Source of the DNA: Chiloscyllium plagiosum
Taxonomy: Eukaryota
Direction of reading: 5' to 3'
Length of the DNA: 64,000 bases
Assembly: GCF_004010195.1 (NCBI RefSeq)
Contig: NC_057718.1
Location: forward strand, 94,717,350-94,781,349
The notes under the pieces were generated by a model, which ran no database searches, was not told where the DNA came from, and was given only the letters and a program-made list of their open reading frames with translations. How positions within the stretch are numbered: position 1 is the first letter of the stretch; each line of letters starts with the position of its first letter. Both the position numbers and the translations under genes were made by a program. This document shows positions 1,030 to 62,837 of the stretch, piece after piece.

Positions 1030-1132
1030 GGAAACAAAAACAGAAATTGCTAGAAAAACTCAGCAGGTCTGGCAGTATTGTGGAGAGGAATCAGAGTTAA
1101 CGTTTCAGGTTGCGTGACCGATCCTCAGAACT
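1030..1132 (-). mobile_element. PLE-derived element family 2, single arm with hammerhead-like core
   Basis: Matches the arms of the palindromes at 14021 and 18548; minus strand reads CTGAGGA-T-CGGTCACGCAACCT-GAAACGTT. Confidence 0.7.
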
Positions 1133-1489
1133 GGGTGTAAGCTGTCATGTCAACTCAATTTGATTTGTTAATTTGATTTTATGTAAAATAAAGTTCACCT
1201 TTAGCTTTAATAAATACTCACAAACTTGTGATGTAGTCCTTTTGGTTAAAACAAATGTTTGGATTTCTCGTAAATGCTAACAGTCCTAACAGAGTCATAA
1301 CAAATTACCTCCTTTTTTCAGTCCATGATTCATCTGAAGCTGGGACCAAACTGCACTTTTGTGCTGAACATTTTATGGATTATACTTGGGGGAAAAAAGA
1401 ATGGCAATTCCTAGTAGTCCCCTTTAACCAAATCTCTGATTGCAATGACTGCACCACTCAATGCCAAGCGGTGTAAATGACTGGTGTTT

Positions 1490-1745
1490 GATAGTGGCAT
1501 TGCTTTGTCTCTAAGTCTCAAATCCCACTCCAGAAATTTGAGCACATTGACCGAGGTCAACACTTCAATAAGGCAGTGCTGAGCCATCAGAGGATGGATT
1601 AGCTATAAAGCTGCTGCACTTAAATGATCGAAAATACCTCATGAAGCTAGATTCACTGCTACTGTTTACGAGACCTTGCTGCGTATTAGTTGGCAACTGT
1701 GTATTGTTGACATTTGAACAAGACTTACAGTGACAATGAAGTAAT
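1490..1745 (+). mobile_element. Old Deu-domain-type SINE fragment (SacSINE1/AmnSINE-like)
   Basis: aatcccactccagaaatttgagcac head region and a degraded gacttgctgcg..ttggc..acagtgac tail; a related tail lies at 56588-56728. Confidence 0.4.
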
Positions 1746-1918
1746 TTATGTTACCACAAAAGTATAAGTGTCAAATCCAGTCTCAATGTTATATTTCTAT
1801 TCAATTGTGAATCCATGTGTCTAAATTAGCTAATTGTACAATAGCACAAAGTGTTCTTCAAGTCAGCTACAAAGCTGCAAAACATTTTCATATCTATCTC
1901 ATTATATTGAACAAATAC

Positions 1919-2198
1919 TATGGAATGAGCTGCCAGAGGAAGTGGTGGAGGCTGGTACAATTACAACATTTAAAAAGCATCTGGGACAGTAAATGAATGA
2001 GAAGGGTTTGGAGGGATATGGGCCAAATGCTGGCAGGTGGGACTAGATTAATTTTGGGTATCTGGTCTAAATCCTTCCTATTCAAATACCCCTCCAAGTG
2101 CCTTTTAAATGGGACTAGGTTAAGTTAGGATATCTGGTTGGCATGAATGAGTTGGAACAAAGGGATTGTCTCCATGCTGTACATCTCTATGACTCTAT
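1919..2198 (+). mobile_element. CR1 LINE 3' end
   Basis: WNELPEEVVEAGTITTFK coding tail, 3' UTR and tctatgactctat terminal repeat. Confidence 0.85.
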
Positions 2199-2625
2199 GG
2201 CATGGGATGGTATATGGTATTGAGACTGACTGCATATAGGAAAGGATCTCGATCCGGGGCCATTGAGAGGGATTGTGGTGTGGGCATGTTTCCATCAGGA
2301 GCCGTTGCACATATATTTGAAAAGAAAATATTTCCAAGATGAAAGGAAATGAGTGAAATGGTGATAGTAGTTGGTAGCTCTTCCTTGGACCCTGCACATA
2401 GGCACAATGATCTCCTGATCTCACTGCTCATTGCAGGAGGAACACTTGGGCTTTGACTGGGATCAAGGCTGGAGTGTGCATTCAAGTTTGTAAGAAAACT
2501 CTCCAGAGACACTACAGGGGGATGAGAGATGGGAAGGGTGTGAGGGATTGGTGAGTGTTGAGCCAGAATCAGATGAGCTTGATGTACTAGGCCTGATATC
2601 CTTTTCCTCAGCCCCTCAGCACTGT

Positions 2626-2943
2626 GGGCAGCATGGTGGCACAGTGGCACAGTGGTTAGCACTGCTGCCTCACAGCGCCAGAGACCCGGGTTCAATTCCC
2701 GCCTCAGGCGACTGACTGAGTGGAGTTTGCACGTTCTCCCCATGTCTGCGTGGGTTTCCTTCGGGTGCTCCGGTTTCCTCCCACAGTCCAAAGATGTGCA
2801 GGTCAGGTGAATTGGCCGTGCTAAATTGCCAGTAGTGTTAGATAAGGGGTAAATGTTGGGGTATGGATGGGTTGCGCTTCGGCAGGTCGGTGTGGACTTG
2901 AAGAGCCTGTTTCCACACTGTAATGTAATCTAAAAATCTAATC
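2626..2943 (+). mobile_element. HE1-type V-SINE, full length
   Basis: tRNA-like head (tggcacagtgg A box, ggttcaattcc B box), V-domain gggtttcct..ggtgctccggtttcctcccac, tail gcctgtttccacactgt plus aatct repeats. Confidence 0.9.
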
Positions 2944-3199
2944 AAATGCAGTGCCACAACAAGGATTATGATTTGGATGCAGCCTTCCTCATATCCTTTT
3001 CCCTTCCGGGTGTTGCAAGGCCTGCAAAACCTGGTTGATGTTAATTGAGAGTGAAAAGCAGCCTCCTGAAATGCTGTTATTAATTAACCTGCCTCTTGAG
3101 TATGGCTTTCGCACATGTCATTTGACCTAACGCCCCCATCGCCTCCTCGCCCCCAACCCCTTCCATCACAACCATAACCAGGCAGGATCAAGACACTTT

Positions 3200-3415
3200 G
3201 GAGAAAGTGAGCACTGCAGATGTTGGAGATCAGAGTCGAAGAGTGTGGTGCTAAAAAAGCACAGCAGGTCAGGCAGCTTCCGAGGAGCAGGAAAATCAAC
3301 GTTTCGAGCAAAAGTCTCATTCCTGATGAAGGGCTTATGCTCAAAACGTCAATTCTCCTGCTCCTTGGACGCTGCCTGATGGGCTGTGCTTTTTTAGCAC
3401 CACACTCTTCGACTC
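3200..3415. mobile_element. Palindromic PLE-derived element family 1 with hammerhead core
   Basis: Left arm is the reverse complement of the right arm; CTGATGA at 3323; duplication tcaagaca(c/g)tttggag at 3188-3203 and 3414-3429. Confidence 0.85.
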
Positions 3416-4194
3416 AAGACAGTTTGGAGTCAGGTTTGAAATTTCTAAATCTTTGTCTTCTCACGCAACTAAAATCCATCATTTTCAGGGAGTTAAGAAC
3501 ACAACCAACTAAATCCAATGCCCTAATTTTGTTGCCAAAGACTTTGGTGGGAAAGTGGATTCATGTATACCCTATGTCGAAAGTTTTCTCAAATAGCATT
3601 CAAAAATTCATGCTCAATGCTGTTTCTATGTCAACATTGGACGATGGAGAGTATACAAACATTGTCAGTGAATTTGGTTGATAATTAATGATTCTCATAG
3701 TCTCTGTATTACATAAATGTTCGTTTTGTAATCAGTGATTGCAATTTCCAAATATAGCTTTCTCCTTGCATGGCTTGGTGTCAAACTTTGTTTGATAATA
3801 ATCACTCCATTGAGAGCGTTGGATATTTCACAAAATTAAAGGCCTGATTGTTGAATTTCTTGTTTATTGCGAAATCACAATGGCACAGAATTCCAATTTT
3901 GTCATAATTTCTGAGTATGTTGTTGGAAGAAGTGAAGCATCATTGGCTGAGATTTGGTTAACATTCCGCTGCTAGAGCTGGACAAACGAGAACTGAAGTA
4001 TCCATACAGCATATACAGAGGTACCATGATGAATAAGTTAAAAGATAGGTTCATAACTCATTGTTCAGAAAGCTAGCTTCTCCTGGGGTTAAGCATAAAA
4101 ACCCAGGTTCTGCTGCAGTAATAGTGGTGAAAATGTTAGTGCCCTCCATCATCACTTCACTGAAACTAATAGTCACTTGAGGACACTATACCCA

Positions 4195-4471
4195 GAATAG
4201 AATCCTTACAGTGCAGGAATTTGACCCATTAAGTCTGCACTTACTCTCAGAAGAGCATTTAATCCAGACCCCACCTCATATTTCCCATGGCTAATCCTAC
4301 TAGCATGCATATCCCTGAACACAATGGAGCAATTTAGCATGGCCAATCCACCTAACCTGCACACCTTTGGGCTGTGGGAGGAAACACACACAGATATGTT
4401 ATGGGTGTGCAAACTCCACACAGACAGTCACCCGAGGCAGGAATCAAACCCTTGTCCCTGGCTAACCACGG
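4195..4471 (-). mobile_element. HE1-related V-SINE, diverged
   Basis: Reverse complement of the V-domain and tail (aatttagcatggccaat, aaactccacacagacagtc). Confidence 0.8.
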
Positions 4472-4649
4472 ATCCACAGCGTTGCCCTAATATGCAGAAT
4501 CACATGGAACGCCATAAGTGAATCAATCCTGTACTATTGGGTTCACATACTGTTGAGATACCACAGATTTTATTCCCCACTAACAGTGTGAATTGATAAA
4601 AAGTTCCATTCCAGCACTGCTAGTCTAACTGTAAAAGATCATAGAGAAG

Positions 4650-4810
4650 TTCCCTCATTAGACAGATATAACTGGTAATGGTTTAACCTCAGGGTCACCA
4701 TGCCTCAGGCAAAGGAAGAACAGTCCTTCATTGTAACGTCAGCCAGTGCGAGAATTGAACCCATGCTGTTAGCATCACTCTGAATTGCAAACCAGGTAAC
4801 TGGGCTGATC
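4650..4810 (-). mobile_element. tRNA-derived SINE family C
   Basis: ggtttaacctcagggtcacca..gaattgaaccc is the reverse complement of the copies at 9063 and 16864. Confidence 0.65.
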
Positions 4811-5134
4811 AACCCTTATAACATAAGAGCTCTTGCAAAAAATAAACACCATCAAATGAAGAGTAATTGAATTTTTAATCTTACCAATTACTCTTAAACA
4901 CCCGGCTCTGAAACTGCATACTAGTGAACTGCCAAATTTCCACAAAGTTGAATGAAAATAAGTGCGCACCTACAAAGCCTTAATTGTTTGTTCATTTTAA
5001 CTTCTATGTCAATCCAATCAAACTAACATTTTCACTACCTGAAGATTTAAACTAAAACTGAAAAGTATTAACTGCTCTGAATTTCCTGGACTGTGGTGCA
5101 CACCAACATATCCCCTGGCCTTGGCTCTGGGTTT

Positions 5135-6609: not shown

Positions 6610-6661
6610 TATAATGAAAGGGTATGGGAAGAAAGCAAGAGGTTGGCACTAGGTAATGATG

Positions 6662-6786
6662 GAGGAGAAAGTGAGGTCTGCAGATGCTGGAGATCAGAGC
6701 TGAAAATGTGTTGCTGGAAAAGCGCAGCAGGTCAGGCAGCATCCAGGCAACAGGAGAATCGACGTTTCGGGCATAAGCCCTTCTTG
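6662..6786 (-). mobile_element. PLE-derived family 1, single arm
   Basis: ggagaaagtgagg..gacgtttcgggcataagcccttc matches the left arm of the element at 3200. Confidence 0.8.
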
Positions 6787-6867
6787 ATGCTCATTTGATT
6801 ACCCGATACAGTCATTATGGACTGAAAAGCTTCCTTCTACACTGATTCTGTGACAATGCAGAAAGCA

Positions 6868-7405
6868 TATAGTCCTACAGCACAGAAGCAGACCCTTTGG
6901 TCCAACTTGTCCATGCTGACCAGACATATCAATCTGAGTTGGTCGCATTTGCCAACACTTGACTCATATTCCTCTTAACCCTTCCGATTCACATGCCCAT
7001 CCAGATGCCTTTTAAACGATATAATTGTACCAGCCTCCACCATTTCCTCTAGCAGCTCCTTCCATACACGCACCACCTTCTGCGTGAAAAAGTTACCCCT
7101 CAGGTTTTTCACTAAATCTTTCCCCCTCACCTTAAACCTATGCCCTCGAGATTTGGACACCCCACCCCAGGAAAAAGACCTTGGCTATTCACCCTATCTA
7201 TGTCCCTCATCATCATTTGATAAACTTCAATAAGGTCACCGCAGCAGCCTTTGATGCTCCAGGGTCAAAAAACCCCAGCCTATTCAGTCTTGCCCTTTAG
7301 CTCATCTTCAGTCCTGGCAACATCCTCATAACACTTTTCTGCACCCTCTCAAGTTCAAGAACATTCTTCCTATAGAATAGCGACCAGAATTGTATGCAAT
7401 GTCCT
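6868..7405 (-). mobile_element. CR1 LINE 3' fragment
   Basis: SRGHRFKVRGKD..RGNFFTQKVVRVWKEL (ORF 6975-7160) plus 3' UTR. Confidence 0.85.
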
Positions 7406-11170: not shown

Positions 11171-11187
11171 AAAATTAATTGCAAATG

Positions 11188-14020: not shown

Positions 14021-14253
14021 AAACCAAAGAACTGTGGGTGCTGGAAATCGGAACCAAAAACAGAAATTGCAGGAAAAACTCAGCAGGTCTGGCAGCGTTT
14101 GTGAAGAAAGGAATGGAGTTAACATTTCAGGTTCAATAACCCTTTTTCAGGATGCTACTGGTGAAGAGTAACTGGACCTAAAACATTAACTCTGCATTCT
14201 CTCCACAGATGCTGTCAGAACTGCTGAGTCTCTCCAGTAATTTCTGTTTCTGT
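14021..14253. mobile_element. Palindromic PLE-derived element family 2
   Basis: Arms cagaaattgc..gttaac and ttaactc..aatttctg are inverted; TSD acttgt(g/c)tatc at 14007-14017 and 14254-14264. Confidence 0.8.
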
Positions 14254-15406: not shown

Positions 15407-15967
15407 ATGACGTGGAGGTGCCAGTTTTGGACTGGGTTGGACAAGGTCAAAAATCGCACAATGCCAGGTTATAGTCCAACGGATATATTTGAAAGCACTA
15501 GCTTTCAGAGCGCTGCCCCGTCGTCAGGTGCTAGTGAGAGAGGAAGACCTGAGGCACAGAAGTTCTAAGGAAAAGATCAAAGGGTCATACAACTCATGCG
15601 AACAAATTAAACACACTTAAGATGGCTCTTAAATCTTTAATCAGTTAGAATGGAGGTGCAGGTTTTGAATGATTGATAAAACCTCAAGATGTCTTGGGGC
15701 AGTGACTTGAAAGAAATTCTGGGATTTGCATATTAACCAGTCGAAACCTGCCCCTCAATTCTAACTGATCAAAGATTTAAGAGCCATCTTAGGTGTGTTT
15801 AATTCATTTGCATGAGTTATATAACCCCTTGATCTTTTCCTTCTAAATTTTGTGCCTAACATCTTCCTCTCTCACTAGCACCTGATGAAGGAGCTGTGCT
15901 CCGAAACCTAGTGTTTTCAAATAAACCCATTGGACTATAGCCTAGCGTTGTGTGATTTCTGACCTTG
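15407..15967. mobile_element. Long palindromic PLE-derived element family 3 with hammerhead cores in both arms
   Basis: 15443-15678 is inverted to 15731-15967; cores CTGACGA..GAAAGCTA (minus) and CTGATGA..GAAACCTA (plus); flanks ttgatt/ttgatt. Confidence 0.85.
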
Positions 15968-16863
15968 ATTGACTCTATTTAAAATAAAAACATAAAACTC
16001 AGAGGACTCCCTCTACACACTCAGGCACCACATGATACCGTAAACCTGACACCGTCAACTGATCCAACACCACCCCACTCCCCCCGACTTTTCCTAGTCT
16101 TTTAATGCCCCCTCCTCCCGCCCCTTGTCTACAGGGAAGATCTGATCTTGGGGTATGTAATTCCACAGTTTCTTAACCTTGTATACAGGTTTACTGTTTC
16201 TGATATAAATCCCTGCCAATAATGTGAAACCTATAGCCTCATGTGAATCAGTGTGAAATTTCCAAGGTGAAATGAACACTTTGATATGAGGCTGTAGTAA
16301 CATGAATGCAGTGAGGGGGAAACTGTGCAGTATCGAGTGAGTTTAGACAATTTCTAAAGAAGGTAATGATATTACCCCACCAGAAAATTAAATGCGTGCT
16401 GTGATCTGTTTCTTTTTTCAAATCTATAATCACAGGCAGCAGCTAGAATAACAGTCATGAAGCACATTATTAAAACAAGTCATTGTTTTTCAGTTCCAGG
16501 CTTAGATGAGGAAGGGATGTCAAGGACACGAAGCAAGGATTCATTACAGCCCAAGAAGGTGAGTAATCCATTGTTTCATTCTGAGGAACTCTGCACAGAT
16601 AAATCAATATCTTGATTTTGACTGGAATGAGCAGGCCATAAGGGTCATGGTACCTAAGGGAACAGGCGAACGACTCAATAGTGAGGAAAAGAGTTCTCAT
16701 CTTGTGAAACATTAGAAACAAAAACCTTTTCTAAACTGTGGGCAGGAGTTTCCTGTCCAGCATCGCAGCCTTTGGAAATATGATGGGATTGAGTCTCTGT
16801 CCTTCTGCTATTTGAAATGCTAAATGCTGCCAGATAGGCTGGGGTTTGTACTATTCAAGGGAA

Positions 16864-18489: not shown

Positions 18490-18775
18490 AGGCAAACTTT
18501 GGCTGATGCCGGAATGCTGAAACAAACATAGAGAATGCTGGAACAAATCAGAAATTGCTGGGAAAATTTCTCAGCAGGTCTGGCAGCACCTGTGGAGAGA
18601 AAGCAGAGTTAATGTTTAGGGTCCAGTGACCCTTCCTCAGAACTGGACCTGAAACGTTAGCTCTGTTTCTCTCTGCACAGATGTTGCCAGGCCTGCTGAG
18701 TTTCTCCAGCAATTTCTGATTTTGTTTCTGATTTCCAGCAGCTGCAGTTCTTTGTATGCTGGGGAAACTGAACAG
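18490..18775. mobile_element. Palindromic family-2 PLE element (18548-18753) nested in an older family-2 arm
   Basis: Inverted arms meet at cctcagaactggacctgaaacgtt; atgctgg is repeated on both flanks. Confidence 0.75.
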
Positions 18776-24411: not shown

Positions 24412-24798
24412 CTATAATTCTAGCCTCTCCATGTTATGTTTACTCCGTCATTGTTGTCTGCGTGACTCACAAGTTTCACAAATAGAAAGTGCACAGTTTC
24501 ATAAATGATCAGTAGGAAATTCTGCCTGACCGCTGCAACAAACAAATCTTCAATTGATTTTCCATCTTCAACATTGAAGAAGTTGGGCATATAAATGTTA
24601 GCTTGAATATTTCTAAGAAAGGCTCAGTTTTCAAAGTTTTTAGCCTTGCACTCATCCTGACAACTCACAAGAGTACCAATTCAAGGGGAAGCCCAGTATA
24701 AGAGGAGAATGTTGATTGGTTGTCAAATGGACCCTGATGGGTAGAGTCCACTTGCCAACCAGTCAGCAACCTCCTCTCTTACTATAAATGTTAAATCC

Positions 24799-25363
24799 CA
24801 CACAACACCAGGTTATAGTCCAACGGATTTATTTGTAAGTACAAGCTTTCAGAGTGCTGCTTCTTCGTCAGATAGTGAGTGGGACAGGATCATAGAACAC
24901 AGAATTTATAGTAAAAGATCAAAGTGTCATACAACTGATGCGATGTATTGAACAAACTAAGATTGCTGTTTATCAGCTAGAATGGGGATGCAGGTTTCAG
25001 TTCATTAATATGTAAATCCCAGAACTTCGTTCAAGTCACTGTCCCAAGATAATTTAAGGTTTTATAAAAAAAAGGTGACATCTCAGCTCAAACAATTCAT
25101 TAAAGGTGTGAGGTTACAGTCTGTCTGTATCCCAAACTTGAGTCAGACTGGTTCTATCTCCAAAGTAGGAATTTATAAAGTGTCACATGGACTGACTGCC
25201 GACACATTGCGCATTTTTTGAACAAAATAGAAGGTACCTGCAAATACAAATCTGTAAATGCAAATTCACCCCATAGACTTATGTGTATGTGTGTATGCAC
25301 ATGAGAGAGAGAGAGAGAGACAGTGTGTGTGTGAGTGTATGTGTGTATGCACATGAGAGAGAG
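24799..25363 (-). mobile_element. PLE family 3, longer 3' region ending in a microsatellite at the gap
   Basis: Aligns with the left arm of the element at 15407; minus core CTGACGA-A-GAAGCAGCACTCT-GAAAGCTT; TG/AG repeats at 25281-25363. Confidence 0.75.
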
Positions 25364-25863
25364 NNNNNNNNNNNNNNNNNNNNNNNNNNNNNNNNNNNNN
25401 NNNNNNNNNNNNNNNNNNNNNNNNNNNNNNNNNNNNNNNNNNNNNNNNNNNNNNNNNNNNNNNNNNNNNNNNNNNNNNNNNNNNNNNNNNNNNNNNNNNN
25501 NNNNNNNNNNNNNNNNNNNNNNNNNNNNNNNNNNNNNNNNNNNNNNNNNNNNNNNNNNNNNNNNNNNNNNNNNNNNNNNNNNNNNNNNNNNNNNNNNNNN
25601 NNNNNNNNNNNNNNNNNNNNNNNNNNNNNNNNNNNNNNNNNNNNNNNNNNNNNNNNNNNNNNNNNNNNNNNNNNNNNNNNNNNNNNNNNNNNNNNNNNNN
25701 NNNNNNNNNNNNNNNNNNNNNNNNNNNNNNNNNNNNNNNNNNNNNNNNNNNNNNNNNNNNNNNNNNNNNNNNNNNNNNNNNNNNNNNNNNNNNNNNNNNN
25801 NNNNNNNNNNNNNNNNNNNNNNNNNNNNNNNNNNNNNNNNNNNNNNNNNNNNNNNNNNNNNNN
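25364..25863. other. Assembly gap (500 N)
   Basis: Run of n. Confidence 1.
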
Positions 25864-26774: not shown

Positions 26775-27582
26775 GGGGTACTGAAAAGGGCTTTTGGTAC
26801 AATTGTCTTCATTGGCCAGTGCATCATGTACAGGAGTTAGGATGTCATGCTGTGGCAGTACCTTGCCTAGACTACTGCATTCATTTCTGGTCTCCCTGCT
26901 ACAGGAAAAATGCTGTTAATCTTGAAAGAGTTCAGGAAAGATTTATAAAGATGTTGCCAGCAGTTATACAGAGAGGCTAAATAGGCTGGAGCATCAGAGG
27001 CTGAGGGGCATGGATAGGGTGAATAACCAAAGTCTTTTCTTGCCAGGGTAGGGGAGTCCAAAATTAGACGGCATAGGTGTAGGGTGAGAGGGGAAAGATT
27101 TAAAAGGGATGTAATGGGCAACTTTTTCATGCAAAGGGTGGTACGTGTATGGAATGAGCTGCCAGTGGAAGTGGTGAAGGCTGGAACAATTACAGCATTT
27201 AAAAGGCATTTGGATGGGTACAAGAATAGGAAGGATTTAGAGGGATATGGGCCAAATGCTGGTAAATGGGACTAGATTAATTTCGGATATCTGGTCAGCA
27301 TGGACAAGTTGGACCAAAGGGTCTGTTTCCGTGCTGTACTTAGAGTCATAGAAATGTACAGCACAGAAACAGACCCTTCGGTCCAACTCACCCATGCTGA
27401 CCAGATATCCTAAATTAATCCAGTCCCATTTGCCAGCACTTGGCCCATTCCCTCTTGTACAGCCGCAACATGACTTCCCAACTCTTAGACTCAATGCTCT
27501 GACCAATAAAGGAAAGCATACTAAATGCCTTCTTTACAATCCTATCTACCTGAGATCCCATTTTAAAGTCTTTATGACTCTA
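26775..27582 (+). mobile_element. CR1 LINE 3' fragment (plus) with a minus-strand CR1 piece in its tail (27342-27565)
   Basis: PCLDYCIHFWSPCYRKNAVNLERVQERFIKMLP and GNFFMQRVVRVWNELP; tail-to-tail junction near 27340. Confidence 0.8.
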
Positions 27583-30370: not shown

Positions 30371-30382
30371 AAATGAGATTTT

Positions 30383-34035: not shown

Positions 34036-34111
34036 GCTGAGGTTCAATGATGGGGAAGACATGTTTTGAAATGTGCTGCATTTATAGGTTGTATATGAAA
34101 AAGGATATAAA

Positions 34112-34306
34112 GGTGCTGGAAAAGCACAGTAGATCAGGCAGCATCCAAGGAGCACGAGAATCGATGTTTCGGGCATGAGCCCTTCATCAGAAATGTCCGA
34201 AACATTGACTCTCCTGCTCCTTGGATGCTGCCTGACCCGCTGTGCTTTTTCTTGTGCCACACTTTTCGACTCTGACTCTCCAGCATCTGCAGCCCTCACT
34301 TTCTCC
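34112..34306. mobile_element. Palindromic PLE-derived element family 1
   Basis: Inverted arms; minus core CTGATGA-A-GGGCTCATGCCC-GAAACATC at 34190-34163; another arm at 34408-34486. Confidence 0.85.
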
Positions 34307-34939
34307 TATGGAAGAAGGTAGTCAATCTTATTTGATGGACTTGGAAAGACCCTCTGCAGCACATAGTATCTTTCTGAAGTGATTGCTTGATTCCCTTGTC
34401 TGGCTAATGCCCGAGACGTTGACTCTCCTGCTCCTTGGATACTGCCTGGCCTGCTGTGCTTTTCCAGTGCCACACTTTTCGACTCTGCATTATTCCAGCC
34501 CTGCTTTAAAGTTTGGTCACATACCATGTGGAAAAGGTGCACCATAGCCTAGCCATTGTCACGGGGATTCGGCCTGTTCTACTTTGAGGACGTCATCTTG
34601 TACACAGGCAGCCTGAAGCCTGCTCATTGACCAAGTGTTCTGAGGGAGCTTGGGACAATTCAATAAATCAGCTCAACTTTCTCAAAGTCTAGGAGAGCAG
34701 GAGGAGTGATTTATAAAGCACTTCTGTTCCTCCTGACCCCACAAAAATAAAACTTTGCTCTTTGGGTTGGTTCTTCAGTGACATTCAGTGAGTCCCTGGA
34801 GATTAGTAAATTGAATAGTTCGTGGATCATTGGATCTGCTGCTCATAAGCTGCTATTCAATTCAGTTGCTCTGAGATGTTCCAAGAACTCCTTTGCATAA
34901 ATGCATGATCATTGCTGCAATTGTCTGTAAAAATGGTGT

Positions 34940-35715
34940 ACTCTTTGGAAAACAGAAGAATGAGAGGCAACCTTAATAAAGCATCAAAGATCCTTAGGGA
35001 GACCTGACAGGATTGTTATGAAAATTTGTTTCTCCTTCCTGCTGTGCTTTTCCCATGCTATACCTTTCGACTCTGATCTCCAGCATCTGCAGTCCTCACT
35101 TTCCCCTTGTGGGGGAGTCTAATGTAGTGATTGGAACACAGTCAGCCAGGTGGAAGTCGTAGAATGAGTTCACTGACTGGACCAGGTTAAGAGCCCCAAT
35201 TATGGAGCCCTGGCTGACAGATATAACCAGGAGTGTCAGAGGTTCTACTCAATCTGAGAGCAGGCTCTGAGGAAGCCAGACCAGTTTTGAATAGAATTGC
35301 ATTGAATTTATTGTCACGAGTACCAAGGCACAGTGAAAGTTTTGTCAAGTACTGTGTCAAGTATTGTGTACGTGTAAATAAAGGTGACGGGGTTCCAGCC
35401 TCTGTGGAGTTACTTTGTCAAGGACCTGAGACTATAATCTCAGAATAAAGAGTTGCACATTTAAGACGGCGATGAGGAGGAAATTCTTCTCTCAGAATCT
35501 GTGGAATTCTTTACCGCAGAGGGCTGTCAAGGCTGGGGGTTCGTTAAGTATACTCGAGACTGACATAGACAGATTGTGAATCAATGAGGGTGATAGGAAA
35601 AATAAAAGACAGCAAAGTGGAGTTGAAGATTCTCAGATTAACCATGGTCTCGTTGAAAGTTAGAACAGATTCAATGGGCTGAATGGCTTATTTATGCTCC
35701 TACATCTTATAGTCT
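34940..35715 (+). mobile_element. CR1 3' fragment with nested inserts (PLE tail 35038-35105; LTR-like 35123-35417 carrying a Rex1 tail)
   Basis: CR1 RRMRGNL.. sequence resumes after 35418; the insert starts TGTAGT with AATAAA near 35377; 35285-35345 is the reverse complement of the Rex1 tail at 29081-29130. Confidence 0.6.
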
Positions 35716-36952: not shown

Positions 36953-38215
36953 GAGGTGGTGATGGCTCAATGGTAATGTCATTGGGTTAGTAATATTCAG
37001 GAGCCTTAGGTTTAAGTCCTGCTATAGTAAGTGGTGAAATTAGAATTCCTTTTTTTAATAAAGCCATTGTTGATTTTTATAAAACCATCTGGTTTACTAT
37101 CACCTCTTTGGAGAGGCAATTTGCAATTGGCCCCTCATTTTCAAGTGCAAAGTTCAAATATTCCTCTCAGAGAATGAAACACTCCAATTGTGAAATTAGT
37201 TTGTCAAGGCCAGAGAGTCTACTCTCAGATAATTGTGACCTATCGTTTATGTTGCTAAAATCTGTTACGTTTGGCTGAAAAAGCTCACCATTTTCTTGAG
37301 GTTGTAACAGTAAAAAAACACAATTTGAAGCTTATCATAAATCAATGATCCTGCACTGATTGCCTTCTGCAAAGGCCGCAACTGTGCACCCTTGGAAGAG
37401 CAGGGTTTCAGCTTCTTGATATGTGCATTAAACTGGATATCAGCAAGAAACTGGACATTGCTTTCAATTTCAGGGAAGAGATGACAGTAAATGTTGACAT
37501 CAGTACAAATGCATTATTGTTTTAGTAAAGTGATTTCCAAAACTAAGTGAAGTTTTTTTTCTCTTTCTCTCTCTCTCCCACCTAACCCACTAAGCTGTGC
37601 GTATTATTGTAAACTGTTACTGAAAATTTTCAATTGCATTTTAGTTGTGGCAAAAATAAGATATAAGGATATTTTTTCCCAACTCGAAAAGCTGGAGTAC
37701 TGGAATTATCCAGACACTATAAACCCATTATATCGGCATGTTTTAGTCTCAAATTGGTTGTAGACATCGCTGAAAAATGAGTTGCTGGAAAAACGCAGCA
37801 GGTCAGGCAGCATCCGAGGAGCAGGAGAATCGACATTTCGGGCATAAGCCCTTCTTCAAGAATGAGGAGGGTGTGCCAAGCAGGCGCAAGTTTTGCATTT
37901 CTTGTGGTTGCAGGGGAAGGTGCCAGGAGACATCGCTGGTAAAGCCTATATTTGTTGCCCACCCCTAATTGCACCATCTTGGCCATTTCAGAAGACAGCT
38001 AGGTGTCAACCACATTGCTATGGACTAGATCAGGCCAACTGCAAATTTCCTCTCCAAAGAGGTGATAGTAAACCAGATGGTTTTATAAAAATCAACAATG
38101 GCTTTATTTTAAAAAAAAGGAATTTTAACTTCACCACTTGCTATAGCAGGATTGGAACCAATGGCTTCTGAACATTACTAGCCCAATGACTTTACCACTA
38201 AGCCACTACCTCCTC
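36953..38215. repeat. Inverted pair of SINE-B derivatives sharing private changes
   Basis: 36953-37132 versus 38033-38215; 37057-37116 is the exact reverse complement of 38049-38108. Confidence 0.8.
37773..37927 (-). mobile_element. PLE family-1 arm inserted in a SINE-B tail
   Basis: Arm sequence as at 6662; 11-bp duplication agacatcgctg at 37762-37772 and 37928-37938. Confidence 0.75.
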
Positions 38216-40254: not shown

Positions 40255-41592
40255 ATATCGAGGCAGCATTAGTGCCACAGAACATTGAGGTCAATGGGGA
40301 ATGATTCCAGAACCTAGTAGAAAGGAAAATGATTGTGATCATTGAAAGACCATCACCTCACACTCAGATATTCTTCAGGGTAGATATTATAATTCACCTC
40401 TGGAACAGGTGGGATTTGAACCTAGGTCTCCTAGCTACAATGTATAGACACTGCCACAATGCTATGAGAGCCCCTCCATTCCTCAGGGGATTGTCCTTGG
40501 TCCAATCATACTTAGGTGTTTCATTAATGACTGTCCATCCTAAGTAAGGCCAGAAGCGGGGGAATTGTTATTCGTTTCATCGAACTCAATTCTATTCTGT
40601 GGCGGAGCCGGTGTTGGACTGTGATGGACAAAGTTAAAAATCACACAACACCAGGTTATAGTCCAAAAGGTTTATTTGGAAGCACTAGCTTTTGGAGCGC
40701 TGCTCCTTCTGATGAAGTTACCTGATGAAGGAGCAGTGCTCTGAAAGCTCGTGCTTCCAAATAAATTTGTTGGACTATAATCTAGTGTTGTGTGAAATTT
40801 AACACAATTCCATTAAAAAGCCTTGAGGTAATGATGAAACCTGCAGCACATGGAGTAACATCAGGAACAACCTATCAGCTGGGGCGGGTAATGGCAAGTA
40901 ATTTTCATGCCAGACACATGCCATACAATGACTATCTCCAACAAGAGAGAATCTAACCATCACCCTTTGACACTCAATAACATTACCATCCCTGGATACC
41001 CCACCCTCAAAATTGTGCAAGTTAATGTTGTGGACCAGTCATATAAACAGTGTGGCAACAAGAGTGGATCTTGTGGAGTTTGAGTAAGTGACTTCCCGAA
41101 TCCCCAAAGCTTGTCCTCCATCTGTAAGACACAGTGAGAAGTCTGCTTGAATACGCTCCATTTGCAGCTCCAACAACACTTAAGAAACTCAACATCATCC
41201 AGGTTAAAGCAACGTGCTTGGTTGGCACCACATCCACCAACTTCAATATTCACTCCCTTCATCAGCAGTGCACAGTGGCAGCAGTGTGTACCATCTACAC
41301 TGCAGCAAACACAAAGCTTCTTTTAACAGTACCTTTTAAACCCATGTCTACCATCTAGAAAGACCAAGGGCCTGAAATGCATAGGAACACCACGACTTTC
41401 AGTATCCCTGCAAGCCATATTCCACCTGACTTGGAACAACACATTATTATTCCTTCACTCTCATTGGGATTCCTTTGGTCATAGCACTGTGGGTTTACCT
41501 ACACCCAAGGACTACACTGTAGCAAGAAGGCACCTTCTCCAAAGCAAATGGGGAGAGGCAATAAATGCTGAGCCAGCCAGCAACACCCATGG
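40255..41592 (+). mobile_element. L2/CR1-group LINE RT and 3' end, degraded, with inserts
   Basis: PQGIVLGP..CFIND block; VRSLLEY..IQVKATCLVG..SLHQQCTVAAVCTIY; tail ggcaataaatgctg. The same tail family occurs at 12100-12275, 19940-20095, 49635-49785 and 59325-59460. Confidence 0.75.
40597..40803. mobile_element. Palindromic PLE-derived element family 3 (short)
   Basis: Inverted arms; plus core CTGATGA-A-GGAGCAGTGCTCT-GAAAGCTC at 40722-40750; TSD caatt(ct/cc)att at 40587-40596 and 40805-40814. Confidence 0.85.
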
Positions 41593-43840: not shown

Positions 43841-43852
43841 TCTGTCTGTCTT

Positions 43853-46069: not shown

Positions 46070-46169
46070 TTATGAGGGGGGAGTGAGGAAGGGGGGTTGG
46101 GGTTCTTAGGTTGACAGTCAGAGGGTGGGGAGGTAGGCGTCAGGTCATGTCCAATGTGAGAGGTAGTGG

Positions 46170-46771
46170 TTGTTGTGATTCTGTTCGCCGAGCTGGAAGT
46201 TTTTGTTGCAAACGTTTCGTCCCCTGGCTAGGCGACATCATCAGTGCTTGGGAGCCTCCTGCGAAGCGCTTCTTTGATGTTTCCTCCGGTGTTTATAGTG
46301 GTCTGTCCCTGCCGCTTCCGGTTGTCAGTTTCAGCTGTCCGCTGTAGTGGTTGGTATATTGGGTCCAGGTTGATGTGTTTGTTGATGGAGTTTGTGGATG
46401 AATGCCATGCCTCTCGGAATTCATGAATTCGACTGGGACAACACTACTATCATAGGGCAAGCCAGACAGAGAACAGCCAGGGAATTCCTAGAGGCATGGC
46501 ATTCATCCACAAACTCCATCAACAAACACATCGACCTGGACCCAATATACCAACCACTACAGCGGACAGCTGAAACTGACAACCGGAAGCGGCAGGGACA
46601 GACCACTATAAACACCGGAGGAAACATCAAAGAAGCGCTTCGCAGGAGGCTCCCAAGCACTGATGATGTCGCCTAGCCAGGGGACGAAACGTTTGCAACA
46701 AAAACTTCCAGCTCGGCAAACAGAACCACAACAAGGAGCACCCAAGCTACAAATCTTTGCACAAACTTTGA
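46170..46771. mobile_element. Young inverted Penelope/Poseidon-type PLE 3' end (family 4) with two intact hammerhead cores
   Basis: 46170-46422 is inverted to 46482-46734 with about 4 mismatches; encodes HEFDWDNTTIIGQARQRTAREFLEAWH..SINKHIDLDPIY; 14-bp TSD aggtagtggttgtt at 46161-46174 and 46772-46785. Confidence 0.92.
46657..46696 (+). ncRNA. Minimal type I hammerhead ribozyme motif
   Basis: GCA-CTGATGA-T-GTCGCCT-AGCC-AGGGGAC-GAAACGTT-TGC: stem I GCA/TGC, stem II with 6 of 7 pairs, palindromic ACGT in place of stem III; mirror copy at 46247-46208. Activity is not demonstrated. Confidence 0.75.
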
Positions 46772-55589: not shown

Positions 55590-56230
55590 TTTGCCTTTAT
55601 ATCCAAATGCTGCCCAACTCTCCACCCAAACACTCCTCACTACCCTCCTTATAGACCCCGCTACCCCACCCTCAACCCAAATGCTCCTCCCNNNNNNNNN
55701 NNNNNNNNNNNNNNNNNNNNNNNNNNNNNNNNNNNNNNNNNNNNNNNNNNNNNNNNNNNNNNNNNNNNNNNNNNNNNNNNNNNNNNNNNNNNNNNNNNNN
55801 NNNNNNNNNNNNNNNNNNNNNNNNNNNNNNNNNNNNNNNNNNNNNNNNNNNNNNNNNNNNNNNNNNNNNNNNNNNNNNNNNNNNNNNNNNNNNNNNNNNN
55901 NNNNNNNNNNNNNNNNNNNNNNNNACCCCTCCCCACGCTCCTTGCAGACTCCCTCCCTCACCCCTGCATCTAAATACCCTTTAATCCCATCCAAACACAC
56001 TCCTACCCTCCTTACAGCACACTGCCCACGCACTCTCCATTCACATTGCACCCTGACTCTCTCTAAAGACTCCCTCTCCATCCAGACTTGCCCTTGAACT
56101 CTCTTTCCAGACCCCCACCCCACTCTCTATTCAGAAGCTACCACTCGCATTCTCTTTCCCAACTCTCCATCTCGACACGTTCTTCTTAACCTTCTTAACA
56201 GACCCTATTCCCCAATCTCCATCCAAACAT
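55590..56230. repeat. C-rich low-complexity region containing an assembly gap (55692-55924)
   Basis: C-rich tracts flanking 233 N. Confidence 0.8.
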
Positions 56231-56728: not shown

Positions 56729-57350
56729 ATACTCTAATGAATCTATTATAGAGTGTGCTGTCGTTCTTAACATGATTTTCATTGATTTTAATTCAGTTTA
56801 CTCCCAGGCGGAAGACTAGACATTTATTGAGCAAACTTATCATCAGTAATAAACCAATTTTTAGCTGTATGAAATAAATTGTACCAGATTACTACTCTTA
56901 AATGCATCAAGCAATACATTTCAGTGCGAACATCAAAAGGAATTTTTTGTTCTATTACATTGTTGCACGGTGTCAGTTTGTTACATATTTTATATTTGTG
57001 TCTACTCAAATAGATTTTTTCAAAATTGCAATCTAACCAACACAATGTTGGTTGAATTTTGGATTCATTTTCCCATCTCCACTCAAATCCTGAATCTCTA
57101 CTCCATGCTCTGTTTTAATTGAAGCTTCCTAAGGGAATACTCGCAGAGTCGGATTTTATACCGGTTTAATTTTCCATTGAATTTAAATTCAAAATTATCC
57201 CCCTTGCTTTTGTCGCTAGCTTGATCCATATCCATACAGTCGAGTGCCTGGTGTGATAGATAACCTCTGCAGTACTCTGGCAGGATTCAGGAGGGCTAAA
57301 GCTTCATAACAGTACAGTCTTCATTTGGACAGATGAAAAGAAACAAAAGC

Positions 57351-57565
57351 GTGATGCTGGAAAAGCACACCAGGTCAGGCAGCTTCCGAGGAGCAGGAGA
57401 ATCAACATTTCGGGCATAAGACCATCATCTGGAACCTTCCTGACGAAGGGCTTAAGCCCGAAAAGTCGATTGTCCTGCTCCTCAGAAGCTGCCTGACCTG
57501 CTGTGCTTTTCCAGCACCACACTCTCGACTCTGATCTCCAGCATCTGCAATCCTCACTTCCTCCT
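57351..57565. mobile_element. Palindromic PLE-derived element family 1
   Basis: Inverted arms; plus core CTGACGA-A-GGGCTTAAGCCC-GAAAAGTC at 57440-57467; agatgaaaa repeated at 57331 and 57566. Confidence 0.85.
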
Positions 57566-58119: not shown

Positions 58120-58325
58120 AAAATGCAGAAATATCAAAATGCCCTGAATGTCTGCAACTGCAGAGAAGAAAAACAGGGCTAACAATTCGATTACTAAGCT
58201 GTTCTGAAGAAGAGTTATATCAGACTCAAAACATTAACTGTTTCTCTCTCAGATGCTGCAAGACCTGCTGAGTTTCTCCAGCCTTCTCTTTGTTTCAAAT
58301 TTCCAGCATCTGCACGATTTTGCTG
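58120..58325. mobile_element. Degraded family-2 PLE palindrome
   Basis: Right arm ttctgaagaagag..aaaacattaac..cctgctgagtttctccagc; left arm heavily decayed. Confidence 0.6.
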
Positions 58326-59124: not shown

Positions 59125-59260
59125 TTGCAAATCAGAATACAATGTTAGACAACATAAATGAGCCATGTATGTCGGGTCTGTAAAATCACACCCCTGTTTG
59201 AGATCATGTTCACAGGTATGAGCATTCATAAGTCAGACTTTCATAGTCTGGGGATTCCTG
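59125..59260 (+). mobile_element. Tigger/pogo-like MITE right end
   Basis: Ends ggggattcctg followed by TA; shares cacccc..gatca..gtatgagcattc.taagtc with 11330-11380. Confidence 0.5.
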
Positions 59261-60186
59261 TACCAGCCTACTATGGAATTATATTGTCTCCATATATCGA
59301 TATATATAAAACTATATATCCTTCACAAAATCCTGGACCTCTCTTCCTAACAGCAATATAGTGCACCTGTACCAAATGGCCTGCAGCAGTTCAATAAGGC
59401 AGCTCACTTTCACCTTCACCAGGAAAATTAGGAATGGGTGAAATGTCCACTTCCCAAAAAAAGCATTAAAAAACGATTTTTTTAACTTCTGACGACTATT
59501 CCCAAGATCTCCTGGTCATACTTCCATTTTCAATTTTTTATTTGCCCATCCAAAATGTTTCTGCCCATATCCCAACTCACATAATATCTCATCTCTTCAG
59601 TGACGTACACTGGTTCCCAGCTGACCAGTGCCTCAAGTAGTCCTTTAGCTTATTTTGAAAGCAGTGACAAAGCAAAGCCACAACAAGTGGGTTATTTTCT
59701 GCAGAAGCAAACAGACATGTAGCAAGATCAATCATCACTCCTCCAGTCTTCTCCCTTCCCCATTGAAGACGTTGTTCCCTCCTGCCATGTATTTTTTACA
59801 CAATGATGCTGTCAGCCTTTCTCAGGGGACCACTCTGTAGGTGTCGAAAGAAATGAGCTGCTGTTTACTGTTTCTGTTTCAAACAATAAGTAATAGAGAA
59901 GGTAAATGGAGCCTCCATGAAGAGCAACTTTATTAGCTTTGTAGAGCACTCTATCACCTTGTGTTCCAAGTGTGTGACCTGTTTAAGTTATGGATCCGAG
60001 AGGCTAACATTAGGAACAACAGTGCTGACCATTTACAGATAAAAACACTGATTATAAATTGGGCTTCTTTCTGGAATGAGAAATGAAACATTTTCTTGAA
60101 TTAAACATAATGTTGTCCATGAAGTGTAATTACTAAGCAATAAAATATACATTATTTTGCCTTGATAAACGTCCAAAATTATTTTC

Positions 60187-60307
60187 AGAAGTCACATGAC
60201 ACCAAATTTATTTGAAATTACAAGCTTTCAGAGCGCTGCTCCTTCTTATAACCTGGTGGCATGTGACTTTGCCCACCCCAGTCCAACACTGGCACCTCCA
60301 CATCATT
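60187..60307. mobile_element. Collapsed family-3 PLE palindrome
   Basis: Perfect 12-bp TSD aaaattattttc at 60175-60186 and 60308-60319; arms agtcacatg and catgtgact. Confidence 0.8.
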
Positions 60308-60985
60308 AAAATTATTTTCTTATTGATGTACTTTCGGTTAAATAAGAAATAATAATACAGATTTATCTTAAGCCAACCTAAACCAAATTAAACATTAAAT
60401 AAATTTAAGCGTAGCGGTTGTTGGATATCTGAAATAAAACCAGAAAGTGCTGGGGAAACTCAGCAGGTCTGGCAATATTCATGAAGACAAAGACAGAACC
60501 AACGTTTCAAATTGACTTGCTCAGAACCTTATTTTGTTGCACTTAGAATTATTCAAATATTGAGTTAGAAGGAGAAGGAAGCAGAAAATAAGTGAGCAAA
60601 CATTGTCTACTTGCAACACATCAAACTGAAGGATGTTGCCATTCACATGTAGATGAATCAGGAGAGCATGGGAGGGCTAAGAGCTAATCTGTACTCAACA
60701 ATTGCTAAAATCAAGCAGAAATTTGTATGTAAGCACTAATTTGTGGTTCAGCATAATTTTCTTCAATTTGTCTTGAGAAACCATTCTTTAAAAGTTACCC
60801 ACTCTCCATTGAATGGCTGGGTTGAATATCCTGTGATTCTCATTACAAACTTGCAAACTCAAGGCAGAATTATGCCATTTAGCCTCCCAGCCTTGTCCGT
60901 CATTCAATAAGATTAAGGTTGAGCTGTTTGTTTTCTAAATTCTACAGTCCCATTTACTCCTCATAACCTGACAAGACTCTATCTA

Positions 60986-61313
60986 TCTTCCAGCTCAGCA
61001 CTGTCTTCGTGACCTGTCCTACCTGACAATCTCCCTTCCCACCTATCCGCTCCACTCTCCCTTCTGACCTATCACCTCCATCCCCACCCCCATTCACCTA
61101 TTGTACTCTTTGCCNNNNNNNNNNNNCAAAAGCCCTATGTACTCTTTGCTACCTTCTCCCAGCTCCCCACCACCCCCCCAATTTATCTCTCCGCCCTTGA
61201 GACTCCCTGCCTCTATTCCTGATGAAGGGCTTTTGCCCGAAACATCGATTTTCCTGCTCCTCAGATGCTGCCTGACCTGCTGGGCTTTTCCAGCACCACT
61301 CTGATCTAAACTA
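60986..61313 (+). mobile_element. PLE family-1 3' UTR with hammerhead core
   Basis: CTGATGA-A-GGGCTTTTGCCC-GAAACATC at 61219-61246; TSD aagactcta(t/c)cta at 60973-60985 and 61314-61326; 12-N gap at 61115-61126. Confidence 0.82.
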
Positions 61314-61507
61314 AAGACTCTACCTACTCCTGCCTTAAAAATATTTAACCAAACCGTGCCCATCACAATCTGAGGCAGAGAGTTCCACAGTCACATGGCT
61401 CTCTGAGAGGAAAGAATGACCCCCATCTCCATCCAGTAATGGTGATCCCTAAATTTTAAAAGTATTCTCTGCTTCAGGATTCAGAACAAGCGTCCTTTGT
61501 GCATCAA

Positions 61508-61626
61508 GGTGGTAAAAACAATGACTGCAGATGCTGGAAACCAGATTCTGGATTAGTGGTGCTGGAAGAGCACAGCAATTCAGGCAGCATCCGAGGACAG
61601 GCAAAATCGATGTTTCGGGCAAAAGC
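61508..61626 (-). mobile_element. PLE family-1 subtype, single arm
   Basis: Perfect 14-bp TSD cctttgtgcatcaa at 61494-61507 and 61627-61640. Confidence 0.85.
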
Positions 61627-62837
61627 CCTTTGTGCATCAACCTTATTAAGGCCAGTTTGGATCTTATAAACTTAAATTAAATCACCTCTTAATCATTTAA
61701 CTCCAGAGGAAACAACCCCAGTCTGTTGACTCTTTTTCATAAGACAACTTGGTCATTCTGGATAATAAACCTACTGAATTGTCCCCAGCGTGTTGACAGC
61801 TTTCCTTAAATATGAAAATTGACACTGCACATCATATTCAACATGTGGTCTCACCAATGCCATGTTAAACTGAAGCATGGCATCTTTACTTTTATTTTCA
61901 ATTCCTGTCACAATCAAGGAAAGCACTCCATTAGCCTTCTTAATCACGTGCGGTATTTGCAATGGGGGTGCAACATTTAAATTAGACATGTTTTCTAATT
62001 CTTTCTGCCAAAATGGATAAATTTACTTCTTCCTCTATCTGCAAAATTTATGCCCACTTACTCAACTGATCTGTGTTCTTGTTACATGATTGTCACAACA
62101 TACTTTCTTACTTAGCTTTGTATCATTTAGCAACTTAGTCACAAGGCCTTTGTTCCCTTCAGCTAATTCATTGAGGTATGATTTTAAACATCGAGGTCCC
62201 AGTACAGATCCAATTTATCATATCCAGAGTTCATCACATTTCAGTCAGGTTAGTTAGTGGGAGATAAACTTCCACCAGGAAGACATGCAGCAGGTCCGTC
62301 AAATACTTCAATTGTTACATCCATAGTGAGAAAAATGCACTGCAAAATTAACCTTAGAAACAGGAGAAGACAGAAGTAAAAGCATGATGTGACAGGTTAT
62401 GGATGAAAATGTGATTTTTGAAGAAGTTGTAAATTTTGCAGAGAAATTATTTATATCTTTTAATGCTCACTTGATGTGCTCAATTCTTTATGATTAAAAA
62501 TGTCATACTTTGATATTATTAACTGACCTTGCACATTTAGTATAATCACATGTCCCAAATGCTGCTTTTCAGTGAATAATAATTCTCACAGTTTCTAACA
62601 AGGGCTTTCTTCCCTCTGGAATAAGTTCTGTCTAATGACTGATCCTAGCTTTGTTGGAGAAAAATTGGAGTCCGTTCCTCACATTTCTGGAAGGTTTTTT
62701 TCAACTAATCTTCTTCAAAAATAGCCTAACAACACAAAGAGTCTTGTTCACACATCACTTCATTGCATTATTATCACCATCCTACTTGATTACACTGTAC
62801 TTGCCAGCTCTTTTTTTTCCACAAAGTGTTTCTTTCC

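Follow-up and report, generated by a model that had tools for sequence, protein, structure and literature searches.

Hammerhead-bearing inverted repeats in a Chiloscyllium plagiosum locus as 3′-end copies of Penelope-like elements

Minimal hammerhead ribozymes (min-HHRs) are known from the pseudo-long terminal repeats (pseudo-LTRs, pLTRs) of metazoan Penelope-like elements (PLEs), including the fish elements Neptune, Poseidon and Xena (Cervera and de la Pena, 2014; PMC4209133). The motif runs CUGANGA...GAAA with an unpaired base at A9/G10.1, a G10.1-C11.1 pair and a short helix I. It has no loop III and has a palindrome at positions 15.2-16.2 (ACGU or AGCU). A single genome can hold several consensus families that differ by compensatory changes, and thousands of scattered single motifs were taken to be truncated PLEs, with motifs on opposite strands found 100-700 bp apart. 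Here we describe four families of hammerhead-bearing repeats, F1 to F4, in a 64-kb stretch of the 3.56-Gb genome of the shark Chiloscyllium plagiosum (GCF_004010195.1, contig NC_057718.1, positions 94,717,350 to 94,781,349). We call this whole stretch the window. The repeats are of a known kind, end fragments of PLEs with a min-HHR, and form no new class. With high confidence we read F1 to F4 as 5′-truncated, 3′-terminal copies of four endonuclease-bearing (EN+) PLE lineages whose inverted pairs are likely produced anew with every insertion, by internal initiation of reverse transcription at two sites with both target strands priming.

The four families resemble the published min-HHRs in the core, the extra base, the G10.1-C11.1 pair, the palindrome and the presence of several covarying families, and apparently in the short helix I as well. 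No shark is named in that study (PMC4209133). The insertions of EN+ PLEs are described, in the available part of Craig et al. (2021; PMC8557442), as comprising a partial tandem (the pLTR), an adjacent inverted and 5′-truncated copy, and a tail of 30-40 bp at one end.

How such insertions form has been addressed in vitro with PAc, a Poseidon element of Anolis carolinensis (Frangieh et al., 2024; PMC11167929). Its reverse transcription initiates from two internal sites that bound the tail and begins 111-118 nt into the open reading frame (ORF). Within the ORF region, the initial 172 nt are bound by the PAc protein, which also cleaves both DNA strands, extends them, and requires a template that continues past the start site. 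The shark elements appear similar in having two preferred 3′ ends ~30 nt apart and an ORF start inside the hammerhead; the ATG in the F4 core lies ~110 nt from the end of the tail, which may correspond to the 111-118 nt of PAc. PAc is a Poseidon element, F1 to F3 are of the CxxC-linker (Neptune-like) type, and the link is one of analogy.

A further comparison is with the metazoan non-LTR retrozymes, short hammerhead-bearing repeats related to PLEs (Cervera and de la Pena, 2020; PMC7229834). As far as the accessible text of that paper goes, these carry canonical type I hammerheads with loop-loop contacts, whereas the elements in the window are of the minimal PLE type and are not in tandem. Retrozymes with a mean consensus length of 363 bp have been reported from one cartilaginous fish, according to the available portion of a preprint (Li, Clavereau and Pollet, 2026; doi 10.64898/2026.07.22.740005). 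The original prediction for this DNA had suggested that the architecture was poorly described. Multiple min-HHR families, motifs on opposite strands, the inverted truncated copy and the tail are already in print, in PMC4209133, PMC11167929 and the part of PMC8557442 seen.

Four repeat families and their coding parents

Family membership was determined from the coordinates read, from a BLAST search of the window with one member of each family, and then from profile searches. The profile searches gave 28 arms at 19 places in the window, and three additional small F1 scraps. A wider sample, the window plus 200 kb on each side (464 kb), was used for counts within families.

F1: 12 arms at 9 places; tail-out inverted pairs at 3200, 34112 and 57351
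F2: 7 arms at 5 places; tail-out inverted pairs at 14021 and 18548
F3: 7 arms at 4 places; tail-out inverted pairs at 15407, 40597 and 60187
F4: 2 arms at 1 place; tail-out inverted pair at 46170

Copies of F1, F2 and F3 are 75-94% alike within their families, and those of F4 98-100% (BLAST, window). Every coordinate for which one of about 20 short elements had been predicted carries a copy. Not all of them are miniature as proposed: the arms of the F3 pair at 15407 are ~270 nt long, those of F4 253 and 335 nt, and the F1 copy at 60986 ~330 nt.

The predicted derivation from PLEs is supported by coding parents for all four families. Longer copies of each extend upstream into PLE coding sequence, which identifies every one of the four as the 3′ end of an endonuclease-bearing PLE. 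The F4 ORF continues upstream, in other copies in the genome, through a GIY-YIG-type motif (VVYKIPC..C..YIGQTGR) to sequence proximal to the reverse transcriptase (RT). A 208-aa piece of it is 90% identical to a 463-aa predicted Chiloscyllium punctatum protein with PF00078 and is related to proteins of up to 1106 aa with the same domain. In an alignment of ten relatives, the columns V, Y, C, C, Y, T, G, R, E and H do not vary. A structure model of the piece has a mean pLDDT of 71, with values above 88 at residues 71-150 and above 90 at 71-140 (mean per 10-residue block ~72-95 over residues 70-160). Its top PDB folds in Foldseek are I-TevI (prob 0.99, TM 0.73 on the target), T4 EndoII and the UvrC N-domain. 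Genome copies of F4 are 98-99% alike among the best 40 of 2168 candidates. The stop of the F4 ORF lies inside stem II and the following frame begins at an ATG ATG in the core (46660-46700; also L005:1489-1600), and therefore a tandem F4 element would have almost no untranslated spacer.

Long F1 copies have a C-rich 3′ untranslated region (UTR) and then frames that contain a CxxC linker and end in IIYCIRC..YTGETGR...LGTLQPHGINVDF, which match the C-terminal part of the 1106-aa protein (tblastn, E 1.4e-7). None of the 33 F2 arms in the 464 kb is long; two of the 29 best loci genome-wide are, with a common upstream stretch of 317 nt, and one of these has the CxxC linker and GIY-YIG-type motif as in F1 (tblastn, E 1.2e-4). 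The F3 ORF ends ~590 nt upstream of the hammerhead. Searching the genome with a 77-aa piece of this ORF gives 17,381 candidates, whose open frames reach 489 aa, and two of these loci show a CxxCxxC linker, a GIY-YIG-type motif and sequence from the RT side (tblastn, E 2e-6 for the endonuclease part and 8e-8 for the RT part). An RT match was thus obtained for the F4 relatives (PF00078) and a long F3 copy; F1 and F2 were matched at the endonuclease side only. BLASTP among the F1, F2 and F3 ORF pieces was uninformative because old copies are frame-broken, and tblastn with database proteins was used instead. F1, F2 and F3 belong to the CxxC-linker (Neptune-like) type, and F4 is without that linker. 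In the part of PMC8557442 consulted, the CxxC linker is a mark of Neptune and Nematis.

The GIY-YIG-type motif in the F1, F2 and F3 ORFs was recognized by eye. Several results pull against the assignment of coding parents. Pfam gave no GIY-YIG or RT domain in six translated local pieces. The Foldseek E-values of the F4 model are weak (0.12 at best), and a profile built from the ten relatives gave weak RT hits alone among PDB sequences (E 0.0014).

Runs of N stand directly upstream of PLE 3′ ends in the window (25364-25863, 55692-55924 and 61115-61126), and long ones also upstream of F4 copies in loci L003, L004, L007, L016, L020 and L029. These runs, which may be assembly gaps, stand where RT-coding sequence would be expected, and proof of full-length parents is limited by them.

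The individual copies in the window are listed below. TSD stands for target-site duplication, the signs give the strand, and coordinates are those of the window.

F1 copies
3200..3431: tail-out inverted pair; left arm (-) 3200-3325 with full tail, right arm (+) from 3318 and without ~35 nt of the tail; TSD AAGACA(C/G)TTTGGAG
6664..6793 (-): single short copy; full tail, 5′ end at the hammerhead core
34103..34306: tail-out inverted pair; left arm (-) tail-less, right arm (+) with full tail, beginning within stem II
34392..34492 (+): single arm, tail-less; start in the 3′ strand of stem II (by eye)
35038..35107 (+): tail-end fragment
37754..37864 (-): single arm, tail-less; extends ~25 nt upstream of the core
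57333..57564: tail-out inverted pair; left arm (-) tail-less, right arm (+) with full tail; TSD AGATGAAAA...
60986..61324 (+): long single copy of ~330 nt; ~230 nt of C-rich 3′ UTR followed by the hammerhead and an end without tail; contains a 12-N run (61115-61126)
61511..61637 (-): single short copy; full tail, start in stem II; TSD CTTTGTGCATCAA

F2 copies
1031..1129 (-): single short copy
14025..14253: tail-out inverted pair; tail on the left arm; TSD ACTTGT(G/C)TATC
18534..18760: tail-out inverted pair; left arm from 3 nt upstream of the core, right arm from loop II
58202..58314 (+): single short copy
60414..60520 (-): single short copy, decayed

F3 copies
15407..15983: tail-out inverted pair with arms of ~270 nt; ~45-nt tail on the left arm; one hammerhead core per arm, 15503-15527 (-) and 15882-15906 (+)
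24787..25008 (-): single long arm; its upstream side heads toward the 500-N run at 25364-25863
40604..40804: tail-out inverted pair with short arms; intact hammerhead at 40722 (+)
60185..60297: pair of short fragments; TSD AAAATTATTTTC, 12/12 matching

F4 copy
46161..46765: young tail-out inverted pair, arms 98.4% alike; right arm (+, 335 nt, 46426-46760) with the C-terminal codons of the GIY-YIG-type ORF and full tail, left arm (-, 253 nt) with ~43 nt of tail absent; TSD GGTAGTGGTTGTT

Inverted pairs, tails and central junctions

Tail-out inverted pairs occupy 9 of the 19 places in the window, and 8 of these 9 are flanked by a direct repeat of at least 9 nt with at most two mismatches. The predicted tail-out palindromes with TSDs are real features of the locus, and their one-sided tail measures 30-45 nt. 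Their architecture was examined in the 93 F1 arms of the 464-kb sample with a score of at least 40, which comprise 15 tail-out pairs, 63 single arms and one tail-in pair. Two peaks appear in the positions where these arms end on the 3′ side, with 42/93 at model positions 130-133 (the full tail) and 18/93 at positions 101-103. A full-tail arm is combined with a shorter arm in 12 of the 15 pairs; one pair has two tails and two pairs have none.

The layout is like that of EN+ PLE insertions in the portion of PMC8557442 available: tail-out pairs, a tail on one arm (12/15 for F1), heavy 5′ truncation and a hammerhead near the 3′ end. The difference from the insertions described there is that most of those found here have only ~90-130 nt per arm, so that the two ends alone remain.

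The original prediction saw in the palindromes a separate class of non-autonomous hairpin elements, similar to retrozymes or to miniature inverted-repeat transposable elements (MITEs), that amplify as palindromes. Inverted pairs with TSDs at nearly half of the places in the window (9/19) would suit such elements, as would hairpins long enough to draw sub-threshold hits from microRNA (miRNA) models. A palindrome that is itself copied should carry its central junction along, and the junction position is different in all 15 F1 pairs of the 464-kb sample; the junctions of F2 pairs also differ (by eye). Differing junctions mean, as the original prediction itself had held, ordinary truncated PLE insertions whose palindromes form anew each time. 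Arm lengths run from ~50 to 335 nt, TSDs from 9 to 16 nt, and the outer ends are asymmetric (12/15), an asymmetry that a copied palindrome would not regenerate together with varying junctions. We regard amplification as hairpins as highly improbable, close to refuted. The inverted pairs were likely made anew at each insertion. The two arms of a pair also tend to be near relatives: among 92 arms, the partner is one of the 9 closest for 10 of the 15 F1 pairs, the background mean identity being 0.75.

The retrozyme comparison can be put in the same terms. Head-to-tail tandems of a short non-coding hammerhead unit, the feature of retrozymes, are rare among the window-type F1 arms (93 arms, 464 kb). 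Seven same-strand neighbours lie within 400 nt of each other; one pair abuts, one is 24 nt apart, and no arrays are formed. With 2/93 F1 arms abutting or lying within 24 nt of another arm, we rejected F1 to F4 as retrozymes. As MITEs they were rejected on the varying junctions and arm lengths, the asymmetric outer ends and the TSDs of 9-16 nt. Coding parents, differing junctions and the rarity of direct tandems (2/93) together leave little of the proposed hairpin class.

The single tail-in case, at window-relative positions -131374..-131136, consists of two F1 arms with their 3′ ends facing and 6 nt apart. It may represent two insertions into one target.

By analogy with PAc (PMC11167929), we suggest that reverse transcription may have two alternative start sites within the template RNA, and the choice between them would leave the tail present or absent. 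Cleavage and extension of both target DNA strands would then provide two arms, followed by head-to-head joining, again by analogy with PMC11167929 and with what is available of PMC8557442.

The hammerhead motif

The bare pattern CTGANGA-N8-24-GAAA occurs 15 times in the window, against 4.4 expected, and none of 100 shuffles reached 15. A stricter descriptor called for the core with at most one extra base, a stem II of 4-8 bp that is paired throughout and has G-C as its closing pair, GAAA, then A-N-N′-U with N and N′ pairing, and then H (not G). In the 464-kb sample, 13 strict and 25 relaxed descriptor sites were found, and none in each of ten simulated controls. Four arms in the window pass the relaxed descriptor (15527-, 40722+, 46244- and 46660+) and none the strict one. 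The remaining arms bear point mutations, and the motif is intact only at the family level. At that level the predicted shared layout of CUGANGA, extra base, stem II, GAAA, four-nucleotide palindrome and H holds.

A single extra base follows GA, between A9 and G10.1, in 25/25 relaxed sites. The 10.1-11.1 pair is G-C in the 13 strict sites; among the other 12 it is G.U in eight and G-C in four (F4a and F4b), and these last four have an internal mismatch in the stem. The palindrome at 15.2-16.2 is ACGU, AUGU or AGCU, and the next base is C, U or A. Stem II takes the forms GGGC/GCCC, GGGT/ACCC, GGGTC/GACCC, GGAGC/GCTCC, GTCGCCT/AGGGGAC and GTTACCT/AGGTAAT. Across families, the pairs 10.2, 10.3 and 10.4 each show at least two compensatory pair types and, as judged from the sequences, stem II covaries between families. 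Contrary to the original claim, it does not always pair. In the F4 form GTCGCCT/AGGGGAC the fourth pair is a G.G mismatch, which resembles the Drosophila virilis variant in PMC4209133; its relative GTTACCT/AGGTAAT pairs fully.

Three observations stand on the other side. Helix I, judged by eye in copies that have upstream sequence, is short. It comprises 5 bp in F3, 4 bp in F2 and 3 bp in F4; in F1 there are 2 bp, then a mismatch and 1 further bp, so that the F1 helix is weaker than the 4-5 bp of the published min-HHRs (PMC4209133). Its 5′ strand is absent in short copies that begin at or inside the core. The Rfam hammerhead models gave no match, either in the window at the gathering score and with E up to 10, or in 12 chosen 161-nt pieces at the best copies with E up to 10. 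Minimum free energy folding of monomers and dimers formed stem II in some and the three-way junction or hammerhead fold in none, and is uninformative. The layout is that of the minimal type I hammerhead, and the comparison with Rfam that had been proposed yielded no hammerhead. The sole Rfam hits, in the window and in the 12 pieces, were to miRNA-hairpin models below threshold, and arose because the elements are palindromes.

One further sub-threshold miRNA-model match concerns a hairpin of ~100 nt at 27297-27398 (-), which scores 41 bits with mir-1468 (E 1.2e-4; gathering score 95). A portion of its sequence (..GACCCTTTGGTCCAAC..) is found again near 6880-6930, and the hairpin is probably another repeat family.

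5′ ends of short copies and a tandem derivative

The 5′ ends of 106 F1 arms in the 464-kb sample were measured with a longer F1 profile, taking C3 of CUGAUGA as the reference.

Beyond -60 (long copies): 13/106 arms
-60 to -11: 5/106 arms
-10 to +4: 45/106 arms
+5 to +59: 43/106 arms

The distribution also has a shoulder at +10..+24, within the motif. In six single F1 copies, which start ~3-14 nt upstream of the core, the TSD abuts the 5′ end, and therefore the boundary is real and no alignment edge. The 5′ ends of 25 of the 39 F3 arms lie at -27..+23, and 11/39 are long. In F2 single copies, the common sequence before the core is (A)GTT alone. A pile-up of 5′ ends at the ribozyme is not mentioned in the part of PMC8557442 at hand.

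The account of the pile-up that we prefer, tentatively and at somewhat less than even confidence, has the template RNA start shortly before the ribozyme; reverse transcription from the closest initiation site would then reach the 5′ end of this RNA and run off. The short F1, F2 and F3 copies, with 5′ ends clustered ~3-14 nt upstream of the core, would be complementary DNAs (cDNAs) of a transcript beginning just before the ribozyme, primed at the initiation site nearest to the 5′ end of that transcript; this is a weaker inference than the one on the pairs. Without the sequence downstream of the start site and without an upstream promoter, such copies would be dead on arrival, with their hammerhead a passenger. 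It is only a possibility, and a somewhat doubtful one, that PLE transcripts in this shark begin no more than ~10 nt from the hammerhead's front edge, that reverse transcription often starts at the initiation site closest to that 5′ end and runs off after ~130 nt, that most PLE insertions are dead on arrival, and that the ribozyme sits at the extreme 5′ end of the messenger.

Two findings weigh against run-off. The TSD-anchored F1 starts are spread from -3 to about -14, with no single base preferred. In F4 there is no pile-up of short copies at all, since 13/17 arms extend to the 5′ end of the 320-nt model, and therefore the run-off model is not general.

The main rival is that the 5′ ends mark no RNA end and that reverse transcription stopped or switched template there, for example at bound PLE protein or at the folded ribozyme. 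Ends scattered over ~10 nt and the shoulder at +10..+24 inside the motif are what such a stop would leave, and F4, whose ORF runs into the motif, has no pile-up; the PAc protein, bound to the initial 172 nt of the ORF region (PMC11167929), would provide a candidate obstacle. A block at stem II would be expected to leave ends ahead of stem II, whereas the main peak is found past the entire motif, on its far (5′) side. We consider a stop or switch rather unlikely, though more plausible than the other alternatives.

The motif TCAKTY, which we take to be initiator-like, has its A at -4 in F1a and F2 (by eye), and we list it as a weak hint against a stop. The F4 core ATG opens a frame of 36 codons (~110 nt) to the end of the tail. 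In one single-cell poly(A) RNA run, 253 reads fell on an F4 copy and 77 in 100 of them continue into unlike flanks; a second run of the same RNA sample had 0 reads on F4. The F4 reads are mostly read-through from host transcripts. They form no start or end pile-ups, and the library was oligo-dT primed and cannot show transcript starts. A splice-acceptor origin of the 5′ ends (CTTCAG|G ~20 nt upstream, in F1b) was rejected, as the copies end elsewhere, at -3..-14.

Two side observations concern the sequence of these short copies. In a single F1 copy at window-relative position -167578, TTCCTGA and TTCCTGATGA are repeated at the 5′ end right after the TSD, which looks like a short re-copy or a template slip at the cDNA end. 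A stretch common to F1 and F2, GATGCTGCC(T/A)GACCTGCTG(T/A)G..TT(T/C)TCCAGC (e.g., at 57490-57520 and 18690-18715), reads MLPDLLCFSS and MLPGLLSFSS when translated from its ATG. It may be a true ORF start or a protein-binding RNA site.

Outside the window there is a derivative of a different kind. An insertion at window-relative 77505-77955 (L032:3505-3955), 13.5 kb past the window end and with a 14-nt TSD, consists of a 5′-cut arm with its tail, a 257-nt spacer and a second arm in the same direction. The first part of the spacer is the ~140 nt that follow the tail, which extend as a 251-codon open frame in another copy; the second corresponds to the final ~118 nt of the 3′ UTR in coding F1b copies. 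With a 126-nt joint probe, 27 other places that span the joint were found at 80-100% identity (among the best 40 of 1286 candidates). The other 12 scored hits begin at or after the joint, 11 of them exactly there (query 54-126). The direct arm-spacer-arm order is present at 12 of 28 distinct places, at times with more than two units (loci including L125-L154).

This 386-nt unit appears to be a non-autonomous, partly tandem and non-coding derivative of the F1b PLE lineage, retrozyme-like in its organization. It comes close to the non-LTR retrozymes of PMC7229834 and fits the description of retrozymes in the available portion of the preprint (doi 10.64898/2026.07.22.740005). The idea of a non-autonomous retrozyme-like element therefore has a place in this lineage, in the 386-nt F1b derivative, and not among the elements of the window itself. 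The multi-unit insertions at L131, L134, L135, L136 and L150 start at model positions 2-7; these starts, too, count against a stop or template switch as the source of the 5′-end pile-up.

The derivative also bears on whether the short single arms (~130 nt, from hammerhead to tail) could be non-autonomous elements in their own right, transcribed on their own, mobilized by PLE proteins in trans in the manner of short interspersed elements (SINEs), and with the 5′ end as their own terminus. Discrete 5′ ends would follow, as would the large excess of short over long copies (93/106 F1 arms not beyond -60; for F2, 0/33 arms long in the 464 kb and 2/29 genome loci), and the 386-nt unit is a true non-autonomous derivative of the same lineage. 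That unit, however, retains ~118 nt before the hammerhead and ~140 nt past the tail. Both are absent from the short stubs, which stop at the start site of reverse transcription and are therefore taken as dead on arrival; a PAc template must pass that site (PMC11167929). Two F1 subfamilies, one with loop TTTT and GATTTT.. and the other with loop TTAT and GATTCTCC, contribute 5 and 3 long copies and 14 and 16 short copies with a full core. Being represented among long and short copies alike, they show no lineage specific to the mini copies, and therefore the short copies do not look like a lineage of their own. No internal promoter motif turned up, and no test for one was made. We think a SINE-like origin improbable, and keep to run-off from a transcript that may begin just before the ribozyme.

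For annotation, these hairpins resemble MITEs or retrozymes but arise as side products when ordinary PLEs insert, and they should be classified as PLE. Three features are in vivo footprints that bear on the internal-initiation, two-strand mechanism, so far shown in vitro only and in one lizard element: the double peak of 3′ ends, the one-tail rule for pairs and the clustering of 5′ ends at the ribozyme in three lineages. These quantitative footprints and the 5′-end pile-up are the sole parts that merit follow-up. From the 386-nt tandem derivative one can read which parts a non-autonomous PLE needs to retain. If transcripts do start at the edge of the hammerhead, cleavage by the ribozyme would remove a cap-bearing leader, which would give the hammerhead of PLEs a testable role.

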